Positions 1 to 20,576 of a stretch of DNA of 64,000 bases are shown here, one piece after another. The stretch covers positions 91,668 to 155,667 of the forward strand of contig JAWKSK010000001.1 of NCBI GenBank assembly GCA_041389145.1. The letters run 5' to 3'. The DNA comes from Patescibacteria group bacterium (GTDB lineage Bacteria; Patescibacteriota; Kazan-3B-28). The notes under the pieces were generated by a model. The model made no database searches, was not told where the DNA came from, and worked only from the letters and a program-made list of their open reading frames with translations. How positions within the stretch are numbered: position 1 is the stretch's first letter; the number at the start of each line of letters is the position of its first letter. The translations under genes and the position numbers were made by a program.

Positions 1-2609
1 ACATATGTTGATTGCAGTAGCATTGGTGGTACCCAGAGATAGAGTACCCGCTACGACGGTATCTAAACCTGCGGCGGTGGTTCCAGCGGATACCAGAGTC
101 ATGCCACTTTCGTTAACTGAGAATAAGTCGGTACCCACGTCGTCCTCGATTAGGATGGCATTACCAGTGTTTTGGGATTGGTCGATGATGATATGAATAC
201 CATTACCATCTGTTCCGTTAGCATCCACAGCATCAAGGGTGATTAACAATGCATCACCTGCTGCGTTACCACCTGTGGCTGGGTTAAATGTTAATTCGAG
301 TAAGTTTCCAGTAGTAGAAGCTCCAGTTGTTTCAGTAATCACCACAGCTAAATCTGAGGCAGTTTCAATACTGTTGCCACCTTCATATGCTCCTTGGAGG
401 TCAGATACTCCTCCACCTCCACATCCAGTACATCCGTTAACAATGAGATCTCCGTTAGTATCAATAGACCAGTTAGCAGAGGTAATGATGACAGTGTCAT
501 TAACTTCACCGATGGTGATGGCATCTGCATCTGCATTGGTACCAATGGTGACAGTGTCACAGGCTGCTGAGTTACAGAGAGATAGGGAAGTGGCGGTACT
601 ATTGCCAATTGTTAATGCCCCAGCAGAACCAACATCAATCCCCTGTCCGGCGGCTACTGTAACGCCACCGGTATCGGCGGTGAGGGAGTCGGCAGTGAGG
701 TTATCTTGAACGTCTACTGCTCCTCCTGCATTGATGGTTAAAGTTGCTCCGTCTGAAGTGATACTATCCCCGTTGACGGCGAGAGTACCGGTCAGTGTAA
801 GGCCGGTAAATTGGGGAGAGTCACCAGTTCCTAATCCTAAGTTAGTACGAGCAGTAGCGGCATCATTGAGGTCGGATAGATCATTAGCAATCTGAAGATA
901 GGCACTGTTTAAAGTTCCGGTATAGTTACCGGTGGTAAGAACAGTTCCGGTACTACCAGAAAAGGTATAGGTTGCATCGCCGGACAGATCACCAACATCA
1001 ATTGTTCCATAGAAAGTACCGCCAACAGACTCAAGAATCTGCAACTGCGCATCTGCATTGTTAAAGATGATGTCAAAGGCACCAGTTTGGTTCCAGTCGG
1101 CTGTTAATGCACCGAGGGCAAGGGTTAGTGCAGCCCCTTCAGAACCGCCGTCTCCTCCAGAGATTCCAGAACCGTTGGTAATACTAGCCACATAGTTACC
1201 GGTAGTATCAGTGCTTAATGCAACTGAATCAGAAGCAATGGTTAAGGCGGTACTCCCATCAGAATCGAGAGTAGCTGTAACATCACCGGTAAAGGTGTCT
1301 CCGGATAGGATTACAGTGCCTGAAGCGTTTCGGAATGTAACGGTTCGGTCTGCTGTTGGGTCAGTAATTGCAAAAGTTAACTCATTGGTATCATCTGTTG
1401 CACCGTCAAAGGAAAGCGGGGTTGCACCTTGAATGGCACCGGTTACGGTAATTCCATCGGTTATCGCATCACCTAAGGTGAGATTTCCATACGTTGTAAT
1501 GTTCCCTGAACTATCGAGTAAGAAGTTACCAGCATCGACCACCAAGAGATCATCAAATGTTCCGGTTTGCCCGAGCGTTATAGTTCTAGCTGCAGCATCG
1601 TCACCAGAGAAGGTAAGGTTTGCACCAAGGGACGAAACGACTACTTCAGCACTGAGCGTCCCATCAGCTGATGTAACGAGATATGTAGCATCGGTTGGTG
1701 CTCCTCCTCCACCTCCACATCCAGTACATCCGTTAACGATGAGATCTCCGTTGGTATCGATAGACCAGTTAGCAGAGGTAATGATGACAGTGTCATTAGC
1801 TTCACCGATGGTGATGGCATCTGCGTCTGCATTGGTACCAATGGTAATAGTGTCACAGGCTGCTGAGTTACAGAGAGATAGGGAAGTGGCAGTACTATTG
1901 CCAATAGTTAATGCTCCAGCAGAACCAACATCAATCCCCTGTCCGGCAGCTACTGTTACTCCACCGGTATCAGCGGTGAGGGAGTCGGCAGTGAGGTTAT
2001 CTTGAACGTCTACTGCTCCTCCTGCATTGATGAAGATGATGTCAAAGGCACCAGTTTGGTTCCAGTCGGCTGTTGTTGCACCGAGGGCAAGGGTTAGTGC
2101 AGCCCCTTCAGAACCGCCGTCTCCTCCAGAGATTCCAGAACCGTTAGTAATACTAGCCACATAGTTACCGGTAGTATCAGTGCTTAATGCAACTGAATCA
2201 GAAGCAATGTTGCTGGCGGTACTCCCATCAGAATCGAGAGTAGCTGCAACATCACCGGTAAGGTGTCTCCGGATAGATTACAGTGCCTGAAGCGTTTCGG
2301 AATGTAACGGTTCGGTCTGCTGTTGGGGTCAGTAATTGCAAAAGTTAACTCATTGGTATCATCTGTTGCACCGTCAAAGGAAAGCGGGGTTGCACCTTGA
2401 ATGGCACCGGTTACAGGTAATTCCATCGGTTATCGCATCACCTAAGGGTAGAGATTTCCATACGTTGTAATGTTCCCTGAACTATCGAGTAAAGTTACCA
2501 GCATCGACCACCAAGAGATCATCAAATGTTCCGGTTTGCCCGAGCGTTATAGTTCTAGCTGCAGCATCGTCACCAGAGAAGGTAAGGTTTGCACCAAGGG
2601 ACGAAACGA
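1..2609 (-). pseudogene. Distal part of the giant tail-fibre-like surface protein (continuation of 2610..3845; runs off the window at 1). Frames are scrambled at 2278-2609, and 1-2277 is a single stop-free frame.
   Basis: Hand translation of the minus strand in 60-nt blocks gives an uninterrupted frame from 2277 to 1. It reads ...AFDIIFINAGGAVDVQDNLTADSLTADTGGVTVAAGQGIDVGSAGALTIGNSTATSLSLCNSAACDT...NGCTGCGGGGGAPTDATYLVTSADG...DLSDLNDAATARTNLGLG..., the same family as ORF 2610..3845. It is nearly Met-free, so a start-codon-based ORF track misses it. In 2278-2609 the same protein appears in shifted frames (ORFs 2184..2426 and 2482..2697). Confidence 0.6.
409..789. repeat. Cys-module repeat, copy 1 of 3 (the other copies are at ~1700-2029 and ~2668-3049)
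   Basis: Near-identical DNA at all three places. It encodes INAGGAVDVQDNLTADSLTADTGGVTVAAGQGIDVGSAGALTIGNSTATSLSLCNSAACDT(I/V)TIGTNADA(D/N)AITIGE(A/V)NDTVIITSANWSIDTNGDLIVNGCTGCGGGG. Differences are mostly third-codon-position substitutions. Confidence 0.9.
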
Positions 2610-11095: not shown

Positions 11096-11950
11096 TTACC
11101 TTTTTGCTCGCTTTAAAACCTCCACCTGGTGAGGATATGGAATTTCAATTTTAGCCTTATCAAATGCAGTTTTTAGAAGCTCTCTATAAGCCCTTGCCAT
11201 TGCCCATTGCTGACCGGCTTCTACTTTACCTAAGATTTTTATGATGATTGCCGAATCCCCAAATTCTTCCACTCCCTCCATCTTCGGGGCTTCTAGAACG
11301 TCTTCAGAGTGCATTACAAACAACTTTTCCCCTGTTTCATTAATTACCTTTCTAACTTTGTCGAGATTACTCTCATAGCCAACCCCAACGTTCCAGTTAA
11401 TCCTTGCCCATTGCTTAGTATGATTGCTAGCAGTGGTAACTTCCCCATTAGGGATATGATGTTGTGTCCCATTTAAATCTCTGATTACAGTTCTTCTAAG
11501 ATCAAATGCCTCAACGGTACCAGAAAGTCCATTGATAGAGATAATATCCCCTTCTGCAAACTGATCTTCCACTAGAATAAACAAGCCGTGGAAGATGTTT
11601 TTAACCATATCCTGTGCACCAAAACCAATGGCAATACCTAAGATTCCAGCACCAGTTAGGAATGGGGTCACATTGATACCAATTTCTGCCAGGATAGTTA
11701 AGGTGGTAAAAATAAAGATAACTATCCCTAGTGTCTGACTTATGACCTGATTCATGGTTTCAATTCGCTTACTTCTACCAGATCTGGTTCTACCGGTAAC
11801 CTTGGTAACCATCCATTTACGCAAAATCCCCCCGAGAATTGCAGAGAGAATGTATTGTGATGCAATGGCAATAATGATAATCAGTCCAAGTTTTGGACCG
11901 TTAACAAACAACCATTGAATTGCTAGTTCTTGTAATTGGTTTATAGTCAC
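11096..11950 (-). CDS. mscS: Small-conductance mechanosensitive channel (MscS family)
   Basis: 284 aa with 3 TM helices followed by GAQDMVKNIFHGLFILVEDQFAEGDIISINGLSGTVEAFDLRRTVIRDLNGTQHHIPNGEV, a typical MscS core. Confidence 0.85.
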   Translation of the reverse strand: MTINQLQELAIQWLFVNGPKLGLIIIIAIASQYILSAILGGILRKWMVTKVTGRTRSGRSKRIETMNQVISQTLGIVIFIFTTLTILAEIGINVTPFLTGAGILGIAIGFGAQDMVKNIFHGLFILVEDQFAEGDIISINGLSGTVEAFDLRRTVIRDLNGTQHHIPNGEVTTASNHTKQWARINWNVGVGYESNLDKVRKVINETGEKLFVMHSEDVLEAPKMEGVEEFGDSAIIIKILGKVEAGQQWAMARAYRELLKTAFDKAKIEIPYPHQVEVLKRAKR

Positions 11951-16912: not shown

Positions 16913-17167
16913 TTACAGCTCGTAATAGTGATCGAACGTGCTGTCCTGGCCGCAACCATAACAGTTGGCCTTCACGGTTATCCCTGTGAAGGTGACTTGA
17001 AGCTGAGGGATATAGTGATATCTCCTCGACTCAGTCAGTATGGTGAAAAAATTGCATCCACAATTTTCGCACCCAGCAGTAGCAATGTCATAGTACTGCT
17101 CATCGCACATTAGATCGGGATCGATCATGGAGGATCCATATGATCCATCTAGTCTTGGTAGGAACAA
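16913..17167 (-). CDS. Small Cys-rich hypothetical protein (possible zinc ribbon)
   Basis: 84 aa with a TTG start preceded by aaggagaa. Cys pairs are CENCGC and CYGCG. No family recognised. Confidence 0.4.
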   Translation of the reverse strand: MFLPRLDGSYGSSMIDPDLMCDEQYYDIATAGCENCGCNFFTILTESRRYHYIPQLQVTFTGITVKANCYGCGQDSTFDHYYEL

Positions 17168-17226: not shown

Positions 17227-17247
17227 ATAAAACCGCTCTGAGAGCGG
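17227..17247 (-). terminator. Rho-independent terminator
   Basis: Stem ccgctc/gagcgg (17233-17238 / 17242-17247), followed on the minus strand by ttttatatt. Confidence 0.5.
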
Positions 17248-17260
17248 ATTTATTATATTT

Positions 17261-17288
17261 GGCAGGCGGTAGTGAGAGAAGTTCGGAC
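17261..17288 (-). repeat. 28-nt tRNA-3'-half-like element, copy A
   Basis: Minus strand reads gtccgaacttctctcactaccgcctgcc and starts 5 nt after the stop of the Nudix pseudogene. Related copies lie at 17830-17856 and 18341-18367, with a weaker one at 17963-17980. Confidence 0.6.
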
Positions 17289-17293
17289 TGTTA

Positions 17294-17780
17294 TTACAAC
17301 TGTTTTAAGAGCTCGTAAGTTGTCATTAAATTATATAGTTTACCTTGGTTATTATCGTTATCCATAGGTTTTACTTTGTCCTTTTTATTGAATTTGATAC
17401 GTATTTCTAGAGCTTCATCAACTGGTAGCCATGTTTGAGTGAATTGAGCCTCGCCTTCATCTTTGGGAGAGTGTTGCTTAACCTCCTGTAGATGCAAGTG
17501 TCGCGGCATAGCCATTAACAACATATCGTTTCTGTTTAAGAAATTTCGATATTGATTACGGCACCAATCTCTTTACATTTTTCACTGTAACTCCAGTCTT
17601 TCTAAGTTCACGGGTAATGGCGTCTTTATCTGATTCTTTACTATCCAAACCGCCCCCAGGAAGTAAACCATCATTGAGGAGTAATACAGCATTGTCTTTT
17701 TTGATAACAACTTTAACAGTTCGACGATCTATACTGAATTGAGCTTCATCAAACTTACCAATATTACTGATAACATTCAT
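17294..17780 (-). pseudogene. Nudix hydrolase paralogue split over three reading frames
   Basis: ORF 17556..17780 has a degenerate Nudix box (LPGGGLDSKESDKDAITRELRKTG). ORF 17294..17524 carries the C-terminal part (...DEGEAQFTQTWLPVDEALE). The frames switch around 17525-17560. Confidence 0.6.
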
Positions 17781-17829
17781 AATTTCAGTATGTTATAAAA
17801 ATACTCGCTCCTGTGGCGTTTATAACGAG

Positions 17830-17856
17830 GAAGGCGGTTGTGGGAGAAGTTCGGAC
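17830..17856 (-). repeat. 28-nt tRNA-3'-half-like element, copy B
   Basis: Minus strand reads gtccgaacttctcccacaaccgccttc. It is followed by a partial copy of the tRNA-Trp terminator (17803-17818). Confidence 0.55.
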
Positions 17857-17988
17857 TACTTGTTTAAATCTTCATTCTGATCTAACAGCCTAATTTTGGA
17901 ATTCGCCAGAATTTCCTTGATGAATTCTTCTGGTGTCATCCACTGTGGGTGATGATCTTTTTCTGAGAAAGTTCGGGATTAAAAGAAT

Positions 17989-18290
17989 TTATTCACTTTG
18001 TAGCAAAGTCCCTATTTTATTGAGATTGTCTTCTGGAAAATATTGGTTTGCCTTACCAATTAACTCAATATTGTTTATTCTTGCGCCTTGAACTTCTTCC
18101 ATTGCTTCTCCCCGGCTTCATTGCTTCAATAAAATCTTCGCTTTCTACTTTTCACGGCACAGATGCAGATCGTTATCTACTCTGGCAAACCAAAATATTT
18201 CCTTGATCGTTATAGATAACTAAATAGACTTCAATTCATGTTCAGAACTTGCTGGTGGATTCCCTCCAAATTGTGATGGTTTTCATTCAT
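17989..18290 (-). pseudogene. Decayed copy of the Nudix gene at 20135..20383
   Basis: Aligns base for base with 20135-20390 (atgaatgaaaaccatcacaatttggaggg vs atggatgaaaaccatctacaatttggaggg). There is a 1-nt deletion after codon 5 and premature stops. It retains a C-terminal tail (IELIGKANQYFPEDNLNKIGTLLQSE) that the other copy lacks. Confidence 0.7.
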
Positions 18291-18340
18291 AAATTCATTA
18301 TCTCATAAAAAATACTCGATCCTGTGGCGAGTAAATTTGC

Positions 18341-18367
18341 GGCAGGCGGTCGTGGGGGAAGTTCGGA
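18341..18367 (-). repeat. 28-nt tRNA-3'-half-like element, copy C
   Basis: Minus strand reads tccgaacttcccccacgaccgcctgcc. It sits exactly where the tRNA-Trp T-arm/acceptor 3' half sits in the paralogous segment at 20434-20465. A copy of the terminator follows at 18314-18332. Confidence 0.6.
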
Positions 18368-19277
18368 AAATTAAATTAGGTTTTGCCTAATATATGTCTG
18401 GATCATTTGAGGCTTCCAGACTGTTCCAAGATTTGAAATTCTCTAATATTTCGTCATCAGTCACTCTTACCTGAATAGATACCCAAAATCTCTCCTTGTG
18501 CCGTGAACCTACTGCTAATCCTGAGATGTTGAAGCAAATCCTCTCGTTTTTATAGTAACAGGAGACCCAGACATACCTGGTTTACGAAGCATCAATATGA
18601 ATATTGGCTTGTTATCAAAATTGAGATCAATTTCAGATGCTATATGCCCAGTTTCTCTCCATATCGGAAATTTGCCTGCAGATGACTTGCCAAAGGAATC
18701 CTATAATGGATACTGGATCAGAAGGAAAACTGATATGTCATTTTTGATGATATATCCAAATTACGTAGCTCTACATCCTGATCAATCTGATCTCTAAGAT
18801 AACATCTACTTTTTCACCGTTTATCTTCTTTCCAAAGCCCATTATCATCAGAATCTACCAGAGGGTAATCTTGGAAGCCAACTACCGAGAGTCTCTTTTT
18901 ATGGTGCCTTTTGTTAGGGATTGCTCCCTTCTTTAAAGCAAGAGTCTTTAGGGTTTGGGGGTCCCGTCCAGAAACAACGTGCCAATTAGAAGGGTTAAGC
19001 ACACTTTGTCGCTATCCTCTATTGTGAAACCTGTAGCTGAAGAAAGGTATTGGTCTTCAAAAATAGCTCAAGATGTAAGGATGTCGTTGTGGACGAATTC
19101 CATTTGACCCATTTTTTGCTTAAATTTTATCCTGACTAAACATATTATTCAGGAACCTCTAAGCACTGAGGGTCTTAGTCCAGCCACTAAGCTCTGTTTA
19201 GATGTCCCCTTAACATAACTAGAAGTTTTGCTCCCGTACTTTCAGATAACAGGATTGCGCTCTAGGGAACGTTAGGA

Positions 19278-19659
19278 TCATTGTCTCCATGGATGACTGA
19301 GATATTGGGTATACGGGATGCGATCAAGGAAAATCAAATGGTACATCCAGGAATATATCTTACAATCTTTTGCCAACTGGTTTAATTGGTCCTGAAACAA
19401 GGATAATCCCTTTAACTGGGTGATTTTCAGTAGTTGTTCAATGAATCTTAGGATAGCTGGGACTCCCAAACCATGGCCTATCAGATAAATTCTCGTCCTC
19501 AATTCCTTGTTTGATCTTGCCTATCAATTTCATGAATCCACTCGGCAACCTGGGGACTTGGTCTGATTTGGCATTGGCAAAGCACAGGTATATATGTCCT
19601 GTTTTTAATTTCCCATTAACCACGGTCTCCAACCTCCATTGACCACTCCTGGAATCCAT
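19278..19659 (-). pseudogene. Frameshifted alpha/beta-hydrolase remnant (YdeN/RBBP9-like serine hydrolase)
   Basis: Two overlapping ORFs in different frames (19438..19659 and 19278..19502). The nucleophile elbow reads IGHGLG (Gly where Ser is expected). The C-terminal part is not in frame. Confidence 0.45.
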
Positions 19660-20134
19660 GAATTAAGAATACTTTTTCTATAGACTTATTTAACACTTAC
19701 CTCTGGAGTATTTTTCTCAACAACACCATAGTCACAAAAGCACCGTTCGCGATAACCAAAGAGGCTGGATATAGCACAGTGGTCAAATTGAATACCTCGG
19801 GAGAGCCATAATTCCCAATATAAACTTGATAGCAATAGAGCAAATGCTGGTACATCTTCGGTTTCAGGGTTGGAAGTAAGCTTTTCTGAACGCTGGCACG
19901 AAGCAATGACATCGATAACAGTAATCATAACCACAGACCAGATTGGATTACTCGTAAGGTACCAAGGTGGGGATGGCCAGCAAGGAAGCGACAAAGAACC
20001 ACCAGTCTTGGCAAATGAGCTGTGGGAATAGCCCTGCCAACAGCTACGAAAATAAAGCTGGCTAGGGCCGTAAGACCTGTTACCCAGGCCCCAGCACCAC
20101 CTCCCTGACACCTGAGCAAAGAAAGCAATGGCGG

Positions 20135-20383
20135 TCAATATACCCTAAGTGAGCCTAACTCAATGTTGTCTATTCTTGCGCCCGCTTCTTCCATTGCTTC
20201 CCGATTCATGGCTTCAATATGATCTTCGCCTTCTTCTACTCTTCCACCTAACAGATGCAGCTCATTATCTACTTCGCAAACCAAAATATTTCCTTGATCG
20301 TTATAGATAACTACATAGACTCCAACTCTTTGCTCAGAACTTGCTGGTGGATTCCCTCCAAATTGTAGATGGTTTTCATCCAT
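20135..20383 (-). CDS. Nudix hydrolase, 3'-truncated (82 aa)
   Basis: Intact Nudix box GGRVEEGEDHIEAMNREAMEEAG. The ORF stops at ...IELGSLRVY, about 50-60 aa short of a normal Nudix fold. Confidence 0.6.
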   Translation of the reverse strand: MDENHLQFGGNPPASSEQRVGVYVVIYNDQGNILVCEVDNELHLLGGRVEEGEDHIEAMNREAMEEAGARIDNIELGSLRVY

Positions 20384-20399
20384 AAATTCATTATCTCAT

Positions 20400-20425
20400 A
20401 AAAAATACTCGCTCCTGTGGCGAGT
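20400..20425 (-). terminator. Rho-independent terminator after tRNA-Trp
   Basis: Stem actcgc/gcgagt (20407-20412 / 20420-20425), followed on the minus strand by attttttat. Confidence 0.6.
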
Positions 20426-20433
20426 AAATTTGG

Positions 20434-20507
20434 TGGCAGGGGTAGGAGGAATCGAACCCCCGCCTTCGGTTTTGGAGACCGACGAGCTACCACTACACTA
20501 TACCCCT
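20434..20507 (-). tRNA. trnW: tRNA-Trp (anticodon CCA), CCA end encoded
   Basis: Minus strand reads AGGGGTATAGTGTAGTGGTAGCTCGTCGGTCTCCAAAACCGAAGGCGGGGGTTCGATTCCTCCTACCCCTGCCA. Acceptor stem is AGGGGTA/TACCCCT, anticodon stem TCGGT/ACCGA, loop CTCCAAA. Confidence 0.9.
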
Positions 20508-20523
20508 TTGTTTTAACAGAATG

Positions 20524-20558
20524 ATTATAGCATAATTCCCGCTATGGATGCGGGAATT
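20524..20558 (-). terminator. Hairpin after rpmG (20534-20558), immediately followed by a TATAAT box (20524-20529) upstream of tRNA-Trp
   Basis: 9-bp stem aattcccgc/gcgggaatt. Minus strand then reads atgctataatcattctgttaaaacaaAGGGG. Confidence 0.5.
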
Positions 20559-20576
20559 ATCTATATTTATTGAGCT

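Follow-up and report, generated by a model that had tools for sequence, protein, structure and literature searches.

Behind the tRNA-Trp gene of a Kazan-group bacterium of the candidate phyla radiation (CPR, or Patescibacteria), a 3.2-kb stretch of minus-strand DNA is built from three tandem modules, each opening with a hairpin and closing with a 28-nt element that resembles the 3' half of the tRNA. The stretch lies in a 64-kb window (the whole piece of DNA analyzed here) that contains nusG, secE, rpmG, tRNA-Trp and a large ribosomal-protein cluster, nearly all on the minus strand and densely coding. NusG of the window is 80–84% identical to NusG of metagenome-assembled genomes labelled candidate division Kazan or Patescibacteria. 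The tRNA-Trp gene (20434–20507, minus strand), called by ARAGORN and matched to the Rfam tRNA family with 64.9 bits, has a CCA anticodon, encodes its own 3' CCA and ends in ...CCCCTGCCA. This gene is the anchor of the array. Behind it, as far as a Cys-rich open reading frame (ORF), lies what is probably a fossil left by cassettes inserted serially, by site-specific recombination, at the tRNA-Trp end. Loci of related genomes, designated below by L numbers, were compared with it.

Modules and pseudogenes behind tRNA-Trp

The 28-nt element is present in three minus-strand copies (17261–17288, 17829–17856 and 18341–18368) with 0, 1 and 1 mismatches to the pattern defined in a first-pass annotation of this DNA, which had reported all three; no match is expected in shuffled sequence. 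Counted with its last base, element A (17260–17288, minus strand; GTCCGAACTTCTCTCACTACCGCCTGCCA) ends in ...CTGCCA at 17260. This copy, the best preserved, closes module III, and with it the whole array, at the distal end. In element B (17828–17856, minus strand; GTCCGAACTTCTCCCACAACCGCCTTCCT), the distal end of module II, the 3' core has decayed from CTGCCA to CTTCCT, and in element C (18340–18368, minus strand; TTCCGAACTTCCCCCACGACCGCCTGCCG), the distal end of module I, the last core base is mutated (CTGCCG). Common to the three are lineage-specific states, the G in TCCGAAC and CCGCCTGCC, the latter also found in L046. A weaker fourth copy had been proposed at 17963–17980 and is discarded here, as it has more than 3 mismatches to the 17-nt left part, is not found by nhmmer and falls within the coding remains of a Nudix gene (Nudix-2, below).

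The hairpin behind tRNA-Trp, ACTCGCCACAGGAGCGAGT, is repeated as well, as the first-pass annotation had noticed: copies lie at 20407–20425 (0 mismatches), 18314–18332 (1) and 17803–17821 (2), with 0 expected by chance, and only the first still scores as a terminator. That copy belongs to the post-tRNA flank (20406–20433, minus strand), which consists of CCAAATTT, the terminator-like hairpin and a T-run and is the proximal end of module I. The copy at 18314–18332 (minus strand), the proximal end of module II, has one stem mismatch, a weakened stem and a fold z of about 0; the partial copy at 17803–17821 (minus strand), with which module III begins, has lost its 5' stem. Read on the minus strand, module I (20433 to 18340) comprises the hairpin, a Nudix-1 fragment fused to a membrane-protein pseudogene, a hydrolase pseudogene, a peptidase pseudogene and element C; module II (18339 to 17828) comprises the hairpin copy, the Nudix-2 pseudogene and element B; and module III (17827 to 17260) comprises the partial hairpin, the Nudix-3 pseudogene and element A. 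Beyond module III stand a terminator and then the Cys-rich ORF. This last terminator hairpin, CCGCTCTCAGAGCGG (17233–17247; fold z −3.2), directly behind element A, differs from ACTCGCCACAGGAGCGAGT, and hairpins of its type are also found behind elements or tRNA remnants in L006 and L045.

That the ~3.2 kb hold no intact gene of normal length was already recognized in the first pass; six-frame translation and comparison with intact homologues resolve the stretch into six dead genes. Three of them are Nudix remains, as had been claimed (Pfam NUDIX, 4.6e-11, 1.3e-5 and 8e-3 for Nudix-1, Nudix-2 and Nudix-3), although they are not three paralogues of one gene, Nudix-3 being of a different Nudix family. 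Nudix-1 (20135–20383, minus strand) retains the N-terminal 82 codons only and is 60% identical to an intact relative, P0001; its homology to P0001 and to Nudix-2 stops at about 20156, and a deletion has joined it to an internal part of the adjoining membrane-protein gene. Nudix-2 (17859–18290, minus strand) keeps its full length of ~144 codons, in which at least 4 frameshifts or stops have accumulated, and extends to 17859 rather than to the boundary at 17989 drawn previously. Together with the preceding hairpins, Nudix-1 and Nudix-2 share 73–97% DNA identity in blocks (20432–20156 vs 18339–18061, at a spacing of 2092 nt) and are a recent duplicate. Nudix-3 (17294–17780, minus strand) has one stop and one frameshift. 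Its intact 161-aa orthologue in L045 (55–62% identity) is likewise followed by an element, and the similarity between the two units of Nudix-3 plus element ends at CTGCCA.

The other three dead genes all belong to module I. The membrane-protein pseudogene (19706–20144, minus strand) derives from a conserved CPR family of ~195 aa without a Pfam entry (67 homologues at E<=1e-3); its first ~45 codons are missing, its pieces align to P0003 and P0004 in frames −1, −2 and −3, and it contains in-frame stops. The overlapping ORFs at 19686–20138 that the first-pass annotation had called uninterpretable are the remains of this broken gene. No real gene exists there as called, the 150-aa ORF at these positions having no family and being judged spurious. 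The alpha/beta-hydrolase remains with a GHGLG elbow described earlier belong to a Ser_hydrolase pseudogene of the YdeN/RBBP9 type (19157–19681, minus strand; PF06821, 2e-6) with several frame changes and stops; its GHGLG has arisen from GHSLG, the nucleophile motif. By tblastx and tblastn, an intact homologue was found in L008 (10862–11425), directly behind tRNA-Trp. A further remnant, absent from the earlier description, is an S1 family (Trypsin_2) serine peptidase pseudogene (18389–19061, minus strand), detected by tblastn with P0076 and P0077. It has several stops, and its pieces lie in frames −1, −3, −1 and −2; the family is ~250 aa long, and nearly all of its 306 homologues carry PF13365. 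Pfam searches of the raw pseudogene fragments gave no match for the membrane-protein or peptidase remains, and both were identified by homology searches.

Because coding is dense and undamaged elsewhere in the window, the decay is local and not a problem of sequence quality; because the Nudix copies moreover differ by substitutions as well as by insertions and deletions (indels), it is real. The contexts of the intact homologues of Nudix-1/2 (L057) and of the membrane protein (L058) contain neither the element nor tRNA-Trp, so these families are not tied to the site. In L058 (8001–13600 of an unrelated 709-kb CPR contig), the membrane-protein homologue sits among genes for HIT, GrpB, two Nudix proteins, LtrA, L-PSP and two deaminases, an accessory-gene run whose cargo is like that of L006 (below), yet without element and tRNA-Trp.

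The element in relatives and its likeness to the tRNA end

With an nhmmer model of the three window copies, five to six same-strand copies were found in L006, each just past a gene and all downstream of its tRNA-Trp, and one in L003. When a metagenome collection was scanned with a degenerate 27-nt pattern, 16 loci matched. Of these, 13 are Kazan-like with unrelated flanks and 3 were treated as chance: the match in L043 (and the identical L044) lies within a GC-rich penicillin-binding-protein gene, and that in L055 was set aside on its GC-rich unrelated flanks alone. Viral contigs scanned for the element gave 0 matches. The element is also absent from L004, L005 and L008. The core is near-identical in the Kazan-group relatives (GTYCTAACTTCCTCCACCACGGTCTGCCA) and reads T[TC]CTAACTTCCTCCACCACGGTCTGCCA across loci, with 1–6 copies per locus (2 in L050, 6 in L006). 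Where a locus holds a tRNA (L042, L050, L053, L006 and L003), it is always tRNA-Trp, which shares the strand of the core and lies upstream of it, and the head of the array is nusG–rpmG–tRNA-Trp in all loci. Two long contigs of relatives (521 kb and 700 kb) have matches only downstream of tRNA-Trp, all on one strand. These contigs do not bear out the dispersed genome-wide repeat that had been considered as an alternative. A repeat of the repetitive extragenic palindromic or miniature inverted-repeat transposable element kind was also rejected because the 3 copies in the 64 kb are all at this locus and those of relatives are confined to one strand behind tRNA-Trp.

Ahead of the element, each genome has its own set of genes, of typical accessory kinds. 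In L006 they encode HD, Ham1, deaminase, tRNA_bind, SDR, UbiA, GNAT and CadD proteins; in L003, RmuC, PLD, an Eco57I-type methylase and SSF; in L050, a nucleotidyltransferase and a DUF433/DUF5615 pair; and in L042, ArsR, ArsP and DsbD_2. Two adjacent cassettes of L006 (16910–18025 and 18265–19131) code for paralogous proteins of 371 and 288 aa without a Pfam family, and the sites ahead of them (16741 and 18131) are 93% identical over 194 nt. Also in L006, at 19233–19300, one element copy is seemingly split by a ~34-nt GC-rich insertion (TTCCTAACTTCCTCCAC on one side, TCTGCCA on the other).

In better-preserved relatives the element is part of a larger site. In L006, L053, L042 and L050, behind tRNA-Trp come an AT-rich stretch, a terminator hairpin and then (C)GTGGAGGTTAGAAC, an inverted arm that is an inverted copy of the element start. 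Inside the L006 array the AT-rich stretch, hairpin and inverted arm also stand behind the element, and with it make up imperfect palindromes of ~90 nt, which fold into imperfect hairpins much more stably than shuffled sequences do (z −3.3 to −6.8). Their outer boxes, YYCTAAC and GTTAGAA, each match 6 of 7 positions of the integron attC boxes RYYYAAC and GTTRRRY; between them are inner boxes, CCTCCAC and GTGGAGG, and bulges. The stop codon of the cassette ORF is often the TAA within CTAAC. Two other kinds of site were considered and rejected: a transposon with the inverted arms as terminal repeats, as there is no target-site duplication around the arms, and a dif/Xer-type site, as the halves GTYCTAACTTC and CACGGTCTGCC, read directly from the sequence, are not inverted repeats.

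The likeness of the element to the tRNA-Trp end was claimed in the first-pass annotation and is upheld. The element occupies the same position relative to the conserved downstream hairpin as the tRNA-Trp 3' end (in the window, L002 and L006), and it ends in CTGCCA, as does tRNA-Trp (discriminator G plus encoded CCA). Its alignment to tRNA-Trp 3' halves beats that of shuffled versions, with p <= 0.002 for the consensus as well as for copy A, and is better than its alignment to the 3' halves of the window's seven other tRNAs. An origin as the 3' end of another functional tRNA or transfer-messenger RNA was rejected, because the element continues for 21 nt behind its T-loop-like heptamer where a tRNA needs 16. 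The further claim, that the elements are decaying copies of the resident tRNA half, had to be given up. Element identity between genomes is 97–100%, with tRNA-Trp identity only 67–83%; the element is therefore constrained or horizontally spread, and not a relic drifting from the resident tRNA. The three window copies resemble each other more than the tRNA because they belong to a conserved site family, in relatives part of the ~90-nt palindromic site.

Breakpoints at the 3' end of tRNA-Trp

The region downstream of tRNA-Trp, compared across relatives, includes both an empty and an occupied site. In the complete Kazan genome L005, a gene for a 59–62-aa membrane protein starts 28 nt behind tRNA-Trp, whereas in L042 this gene starts about 30 nt behind the element and a 2.5-kb ArsR/ArsP/DsbD_2 cassette lies between. 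L053 and L008 have a common convergent ABC-transporter pair, and everything between this pair and tRNA-Trp differs. Differing content at the same tRNA, as is expected of tRNA islands, is thus seen in the pairs L005/L042 and L008/L053 and among all the genomes; the content behind tRNA-Trp differs completely among relatives, so that the invariable region with intact genes envisaged as a counter-case was not encountered.

The tRNA and its flank are also decoupled. L003 and L053 have tRNAs that are 94.6% identical and downstream flanks that are 44.6% identical; for L042 and L050 the values are 75.7% for the tRNAs and 92% for the flanks, and the flank similarity stops exactly at ...GTTAGAAC. The post-tRNA flank of the window is 81% identical to the L002 flank, vs 74% between the two tRNAs, and in L002 this window-type flank stands behind a displaced tRNA 3' repeat. 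Such exact repeats of the genome's own tRNA 3' end, starting midway through the T-loop, were found in L002 (19 nt) and L050 (20 nt), 181 and 205 nt downstream; the L050 repeat is followed by the flank that directly adjoins the intact tRNA in L042. The window has no exact repeat of its own tRNA end. Taken together, the repeats, the empty and occupied sites, the ABC-transporter pair and the decoupling of tRNA and flank point to recurrent breakpoints at the tRNA 3' end.

Several minor features accompany these breakpoints. The 59–62-aa membrane protein (MK..H..S.IYGLG..GAA.YFI...; L005 about 11126–11293, L042 3161–2985 on the minus strand, L008 14608–14796) marks the far side of the variable region; in L008 it lies behind the ABC-transporter genes, and it is absent from the window. 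The inserts between tRNA-Trp and its repeat in L002 (11197–11396; 181 nt) and L050 (4311–4087, minus strand; 205 nt) are short, strongly structured and non-coding, with minimum free energies of −72.5 and −96. They have no Rfam match and align poorly with each other, and could be island remnants or small RNA genes. Rfam searches of the window region, L006, L050 and L002 gave no match except the tRNA. In L045 (about 1750–1860, minus strand), where no tRNA is called, the DNA upstream of the intact Nudix-3 orthologue contains two decayed stretches that resemble the tRNA-Trp 3' end, GGGTTGAATCCGTCTGCTCTGCCA and ...GAGGAGGCCTGCCA plus a hairpin, which suggest further old insertion scars.

Proposed serial insertion and its alternatives

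The arrangement can be explained if small integrase-less cassettes of one to few accessory genes were inserted, by site-specific recombination in this Kazan-group lineage, at the extreme tRNA-Trp 3' end (...CTGCCA). The proximal end of a cassette would be the AT-rich spacer and terminator hairpin, with the inverted arm GTGGAGGTTAGAAC too in well-preserved relatives; its distal end would be the ~29-nt sequence that is like the tRNA-Trp half from T-loop to CCA and ends in CTGCCA. In a circularized cassette the two ends would be joined, and the resulting ~90-nt imperfect palindrome would be the recombination site. Each insertion would keep the tRNA intact and push older cassettes outward, giving the order tRNA-[terminator-gene(s)-element]n. 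In the window, the hairpin and the start of the Nudix gene were later duplicated and a deletion fused Nudix-1 to the membrane-protein gene; the inverted arms were lost, the CTGCCA core mutated in elements B and C, and the six genes decayed by frameshift. The sequences themselves show the architecture, its conservation, its confinement to the tRNA-Trp locus, the variable cargo, the empty and occupied sites and the pseudogenes. The mechanism, with recombination as the cause, a crossover in or close to CTGCCA and a trans-acting recombinase, is inferred, as neither the window nor any locus yielded a recombinase. The first-pass annotation had offered serial integration at a tRNA att site or repeated segmental duplication as the origin of the stretch. 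The position of the element, its tRNA likeness, the variability of the region and the Nudix-1/Nudix-2 duplication all agree with that proposal, apart from its decaying tRNA half.

Several results weigh against serial insertion. A Pfam search of 30 window ORFs found no tyrosine or serine recombinase in the 64 kb, and tblastn of the window and 58 loci with crude XerD and resolvase probes gave no match. No circular form, excision junction or strain-level cassette polymorphism was observed. The window contains no inverted arms, all three of its sites lacking the right half, and about half of all sites, including terminal ones, are without this arm. Element and tRNA are identical over about 6–7 nt only (YCTGCCA), so that the crossover point is deduced and not seen. 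The element copies of the window genome were counted in 64 kb, and further copies may lie beyond. Part of the window structure (Nudix-1/Nudix-2) is plain duplication. In the cargo of relatives, 27 ORFs had no recombinase domain in Pfam. The integrase expected within integrase-mediated tRNA islands, usually next to the tRNA, was not found. The earlier statement that no integrase survives is accurate for the window, although the absence is not a loss in this genome alone, none being present near the arrays of any relative. Modules bounded by a tRNA end or by elements and containing only cargo genes are, on the other hand, as expected of a cis-mobilizable element (CIME), which has att sites at its ends but no recombination or transfer functions of its own. 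A CIME is moved by the integrase of a related autonomous element with the same att site; no autonomous element carrying the site was found here (the viral contigs had 0 matches).

The strongest alternative, itself unlikely, would make the array a genuine integron-type system or a CALIN (cluster of attC sites lacking integron integrases). The palindromes would then be attC sites folded as single strands, an IntI-like integrase would be encoded elsewhere, the crossover would fall in the right arm, between G and TTAGAAC, and the site next to the tRNA would be a hybrid. Integron attC sites have the layout R''(RYYYAAC)-L''...L'-R'(GTTRRRY) with conserved AAC/GTT triplets (PMC4889954; Cury et al., 2016). 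Such sites fold as imperfect hairpins with extrahelical bases and a variable centre of 20–100 nt, and an array has two or more of them. The L006 sites fit the order R''-L''-variable centre-L'-R': GTYCTAAC and GTTAGAAC hold the AAC/GTT triplets, CCTCCAC/GTGGAGG would be the L boxes with bulged bases between, and the centre varies in length. As in integrons, CALINs and arrays with attC sites of the Vibrio VCR type, the cassettes are short and lie on one strand; their accessory genes (GNAT, Nudix, toxin-antitoxin, resistance genes and unknowns) look promoterless and mostly stand singly, and the stop codons often fall in the left box as the TAA of CTAAC. The similarity between L042 and L050, moreover, ends exactly at GTTAGAAC. 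However, the anchor is a tRNA gene and not intI/attI: no intI lies beside the array in any genome, no IntI (a tyrosine recombinase with an extra domain) was found, and the array starts with nusG–rpmG–tRNA-Trp, even if arrays without an adjoining integrase are known and a CALIN needs none nearby. The left half of the site resembles a tRNA 3' half, its sequence is kept from species to species, which is not so for most attC sites, and the sites without a right arm include terminal ones that an integron would need complete. The non-coding stretch from the tRNA to the right arm is more conserved than the tRNA, which fits a crossover to its left; the evidence favours a breakpoint at the tRNA end and not in the right box.

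That tandem segmental duplication and unequal crossing-over of a unit of tRNA 3' end, terminator and gene, followed by divergence, produced everything is improbable. Duplication has contributed locally, as is seen from the Nudix-1/Nudix-2 blocks and their hairpins and from the paralogous L006 sites with their following genes. A precedent is the E. coli tyrT locus, in which the tRNA 3' end and downstream sequence are tandemly repeated behind the tRNA gene, in distal 178-bp units that each include the last ~19 nt of tRNA-Tyr. Those units, however, are near-identical copies of one unit in one genome and not gene boundaries shared across species. Here, unrelated gene families precede identical elements in different genomes, and the element is more conserved than the tRNA. 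The empty and occupied site and the decoupling of tRNA and flank require exchange between lineages. One cassette recurring elsewhere with precise element boundaries, which would speak against duplication alone, is partly seen for Nudix-3 in the window, L045 and L002.

It is similarly doubtful that the element is a functional RNA motif, such as a 3'-untranslated-region or terminator signal or a tRNA-like processing signal, instead of a DNA recombination site. In every case the element stands on the coding strand, with a stop codon before it and a terminator behind, and is therefore transcribed; it is strongly conserved, and its CCUCC could pair with the GGAGG of downstream ribosome-binding sites (L042). 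Yet it matches no Rfam family, and alone it has neither a conserved fold nor a 5' partner for a tRNA-like helix; its restriction to one locus per genome, at the edges of variable DNA, is unlike a general expression signal. An assembly or sequencing artefact, that is, a badly polished or chimeric region with false frameshifts and repeats, might be suspected from six genes broken in 3.2 kb but is scarcely credible, given that the flanking genes are intact across 60 kb, that the Nudix copies differ by substitutions and by indels lying outside homopolymer runs, and that the repeat order matches the architecture in independent assemblies of relatives.

For serial insertion at tRNA-Trp, the nearest described case is the set of tandem islands at ssrA of Dehalococcoides, which have 20-bp repeats of the RNA 3' end and an extra conserved island-borne motif and of which many are without integration genes (PMC3146451, where the Streptococcus CIME/accretion model is also cited). 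Like those islands and CIMEs, the arrays have an intact stable-RNA anchor and units of variable content, many without integration genes, that are stacked, all facing the same way; each is closed by a repeat of the RNA 3' end or, in the window, by a sequence resembling it, with a further motif upstream that is unmatched to the RNA gene. In contrast to them, the units here are tiny (0.5–3.5 kb, often one gene) and no integrase occurs in ~12 loci. Only ~7 nt are common to the element and the tRNA; the element-specific ~22 nt are nearly invariant across species, and the full site is a ~90-nt palindrome containing a terminator.

Integrase-less modules bounded by ~28-nt sites are also known among Xer-dependent systems, such as integrative mobile elements exploiting Xer and the pdif modules of Acinetobacter plasmids, which can stack and are served by a host recombinase in trans. 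The element differs from such sites in having no dif-like 11-6-11 palindrome or XerD-arm consensus, in its single orientation and in its tie to a tRNA.

A full-text literature search found no description of such arrays in CPR bacteria. The genomes of these bacteria are small and generally regarded as poor in mobile elements, and little has been learned of how accessory genes enter and leave them. A conserved hot spot anchored at a tRNA, in which short cassettes are stacked, would give gene flux in this group a concrete path, with a cargo of restriction-modification, toxin-antitoxin, metal-resistance, nucleotide-cleaning and unknown genes. We advance only tentatively the wider idea that Kazan-group CPR bacteria have a gene-capture platform, integron-like but with the tRNA-Trp 3' end as its primary site, ~90-nt palindromes as cassette sites (tRNA-3'-half mimic, terminator and inverted arm) and a putative recombinase in trans; the window would then represent a lineage in which the platform died. 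Such a platform, if true, would mean that cassette arrays were invented independently here, or it would connect tRNA att sites with integron attC sites, and the mix of tRNA att and integron attC features bears on the origin of cassette recombination sites. Since the site is well defined (~29 nt, nearly invariant), its recombinase should be findable by co-occurrence and recombination should be testable in vitro. With six pseudogenes in 3.2 kb of an otherwise intact, streamlined genome, the window would show the end of the life cycle of an array.

Two features of the window flank the array. Between rpmG and tRNA-Trp, a hairpin with an 11-bp stem (20532–20560) is terminator-like on the plus strand and could be a bidirectional terminator or a piece of the tRNA leader. 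At the other end, the Cys-rich ORF just past the array (16913–17167, minus strand) has 84 aa and belongs to no Pfam family; it has a good promoter-like site of its own (17225–17197; TTGACA-17-TAATAT) directly behind the last terminator.

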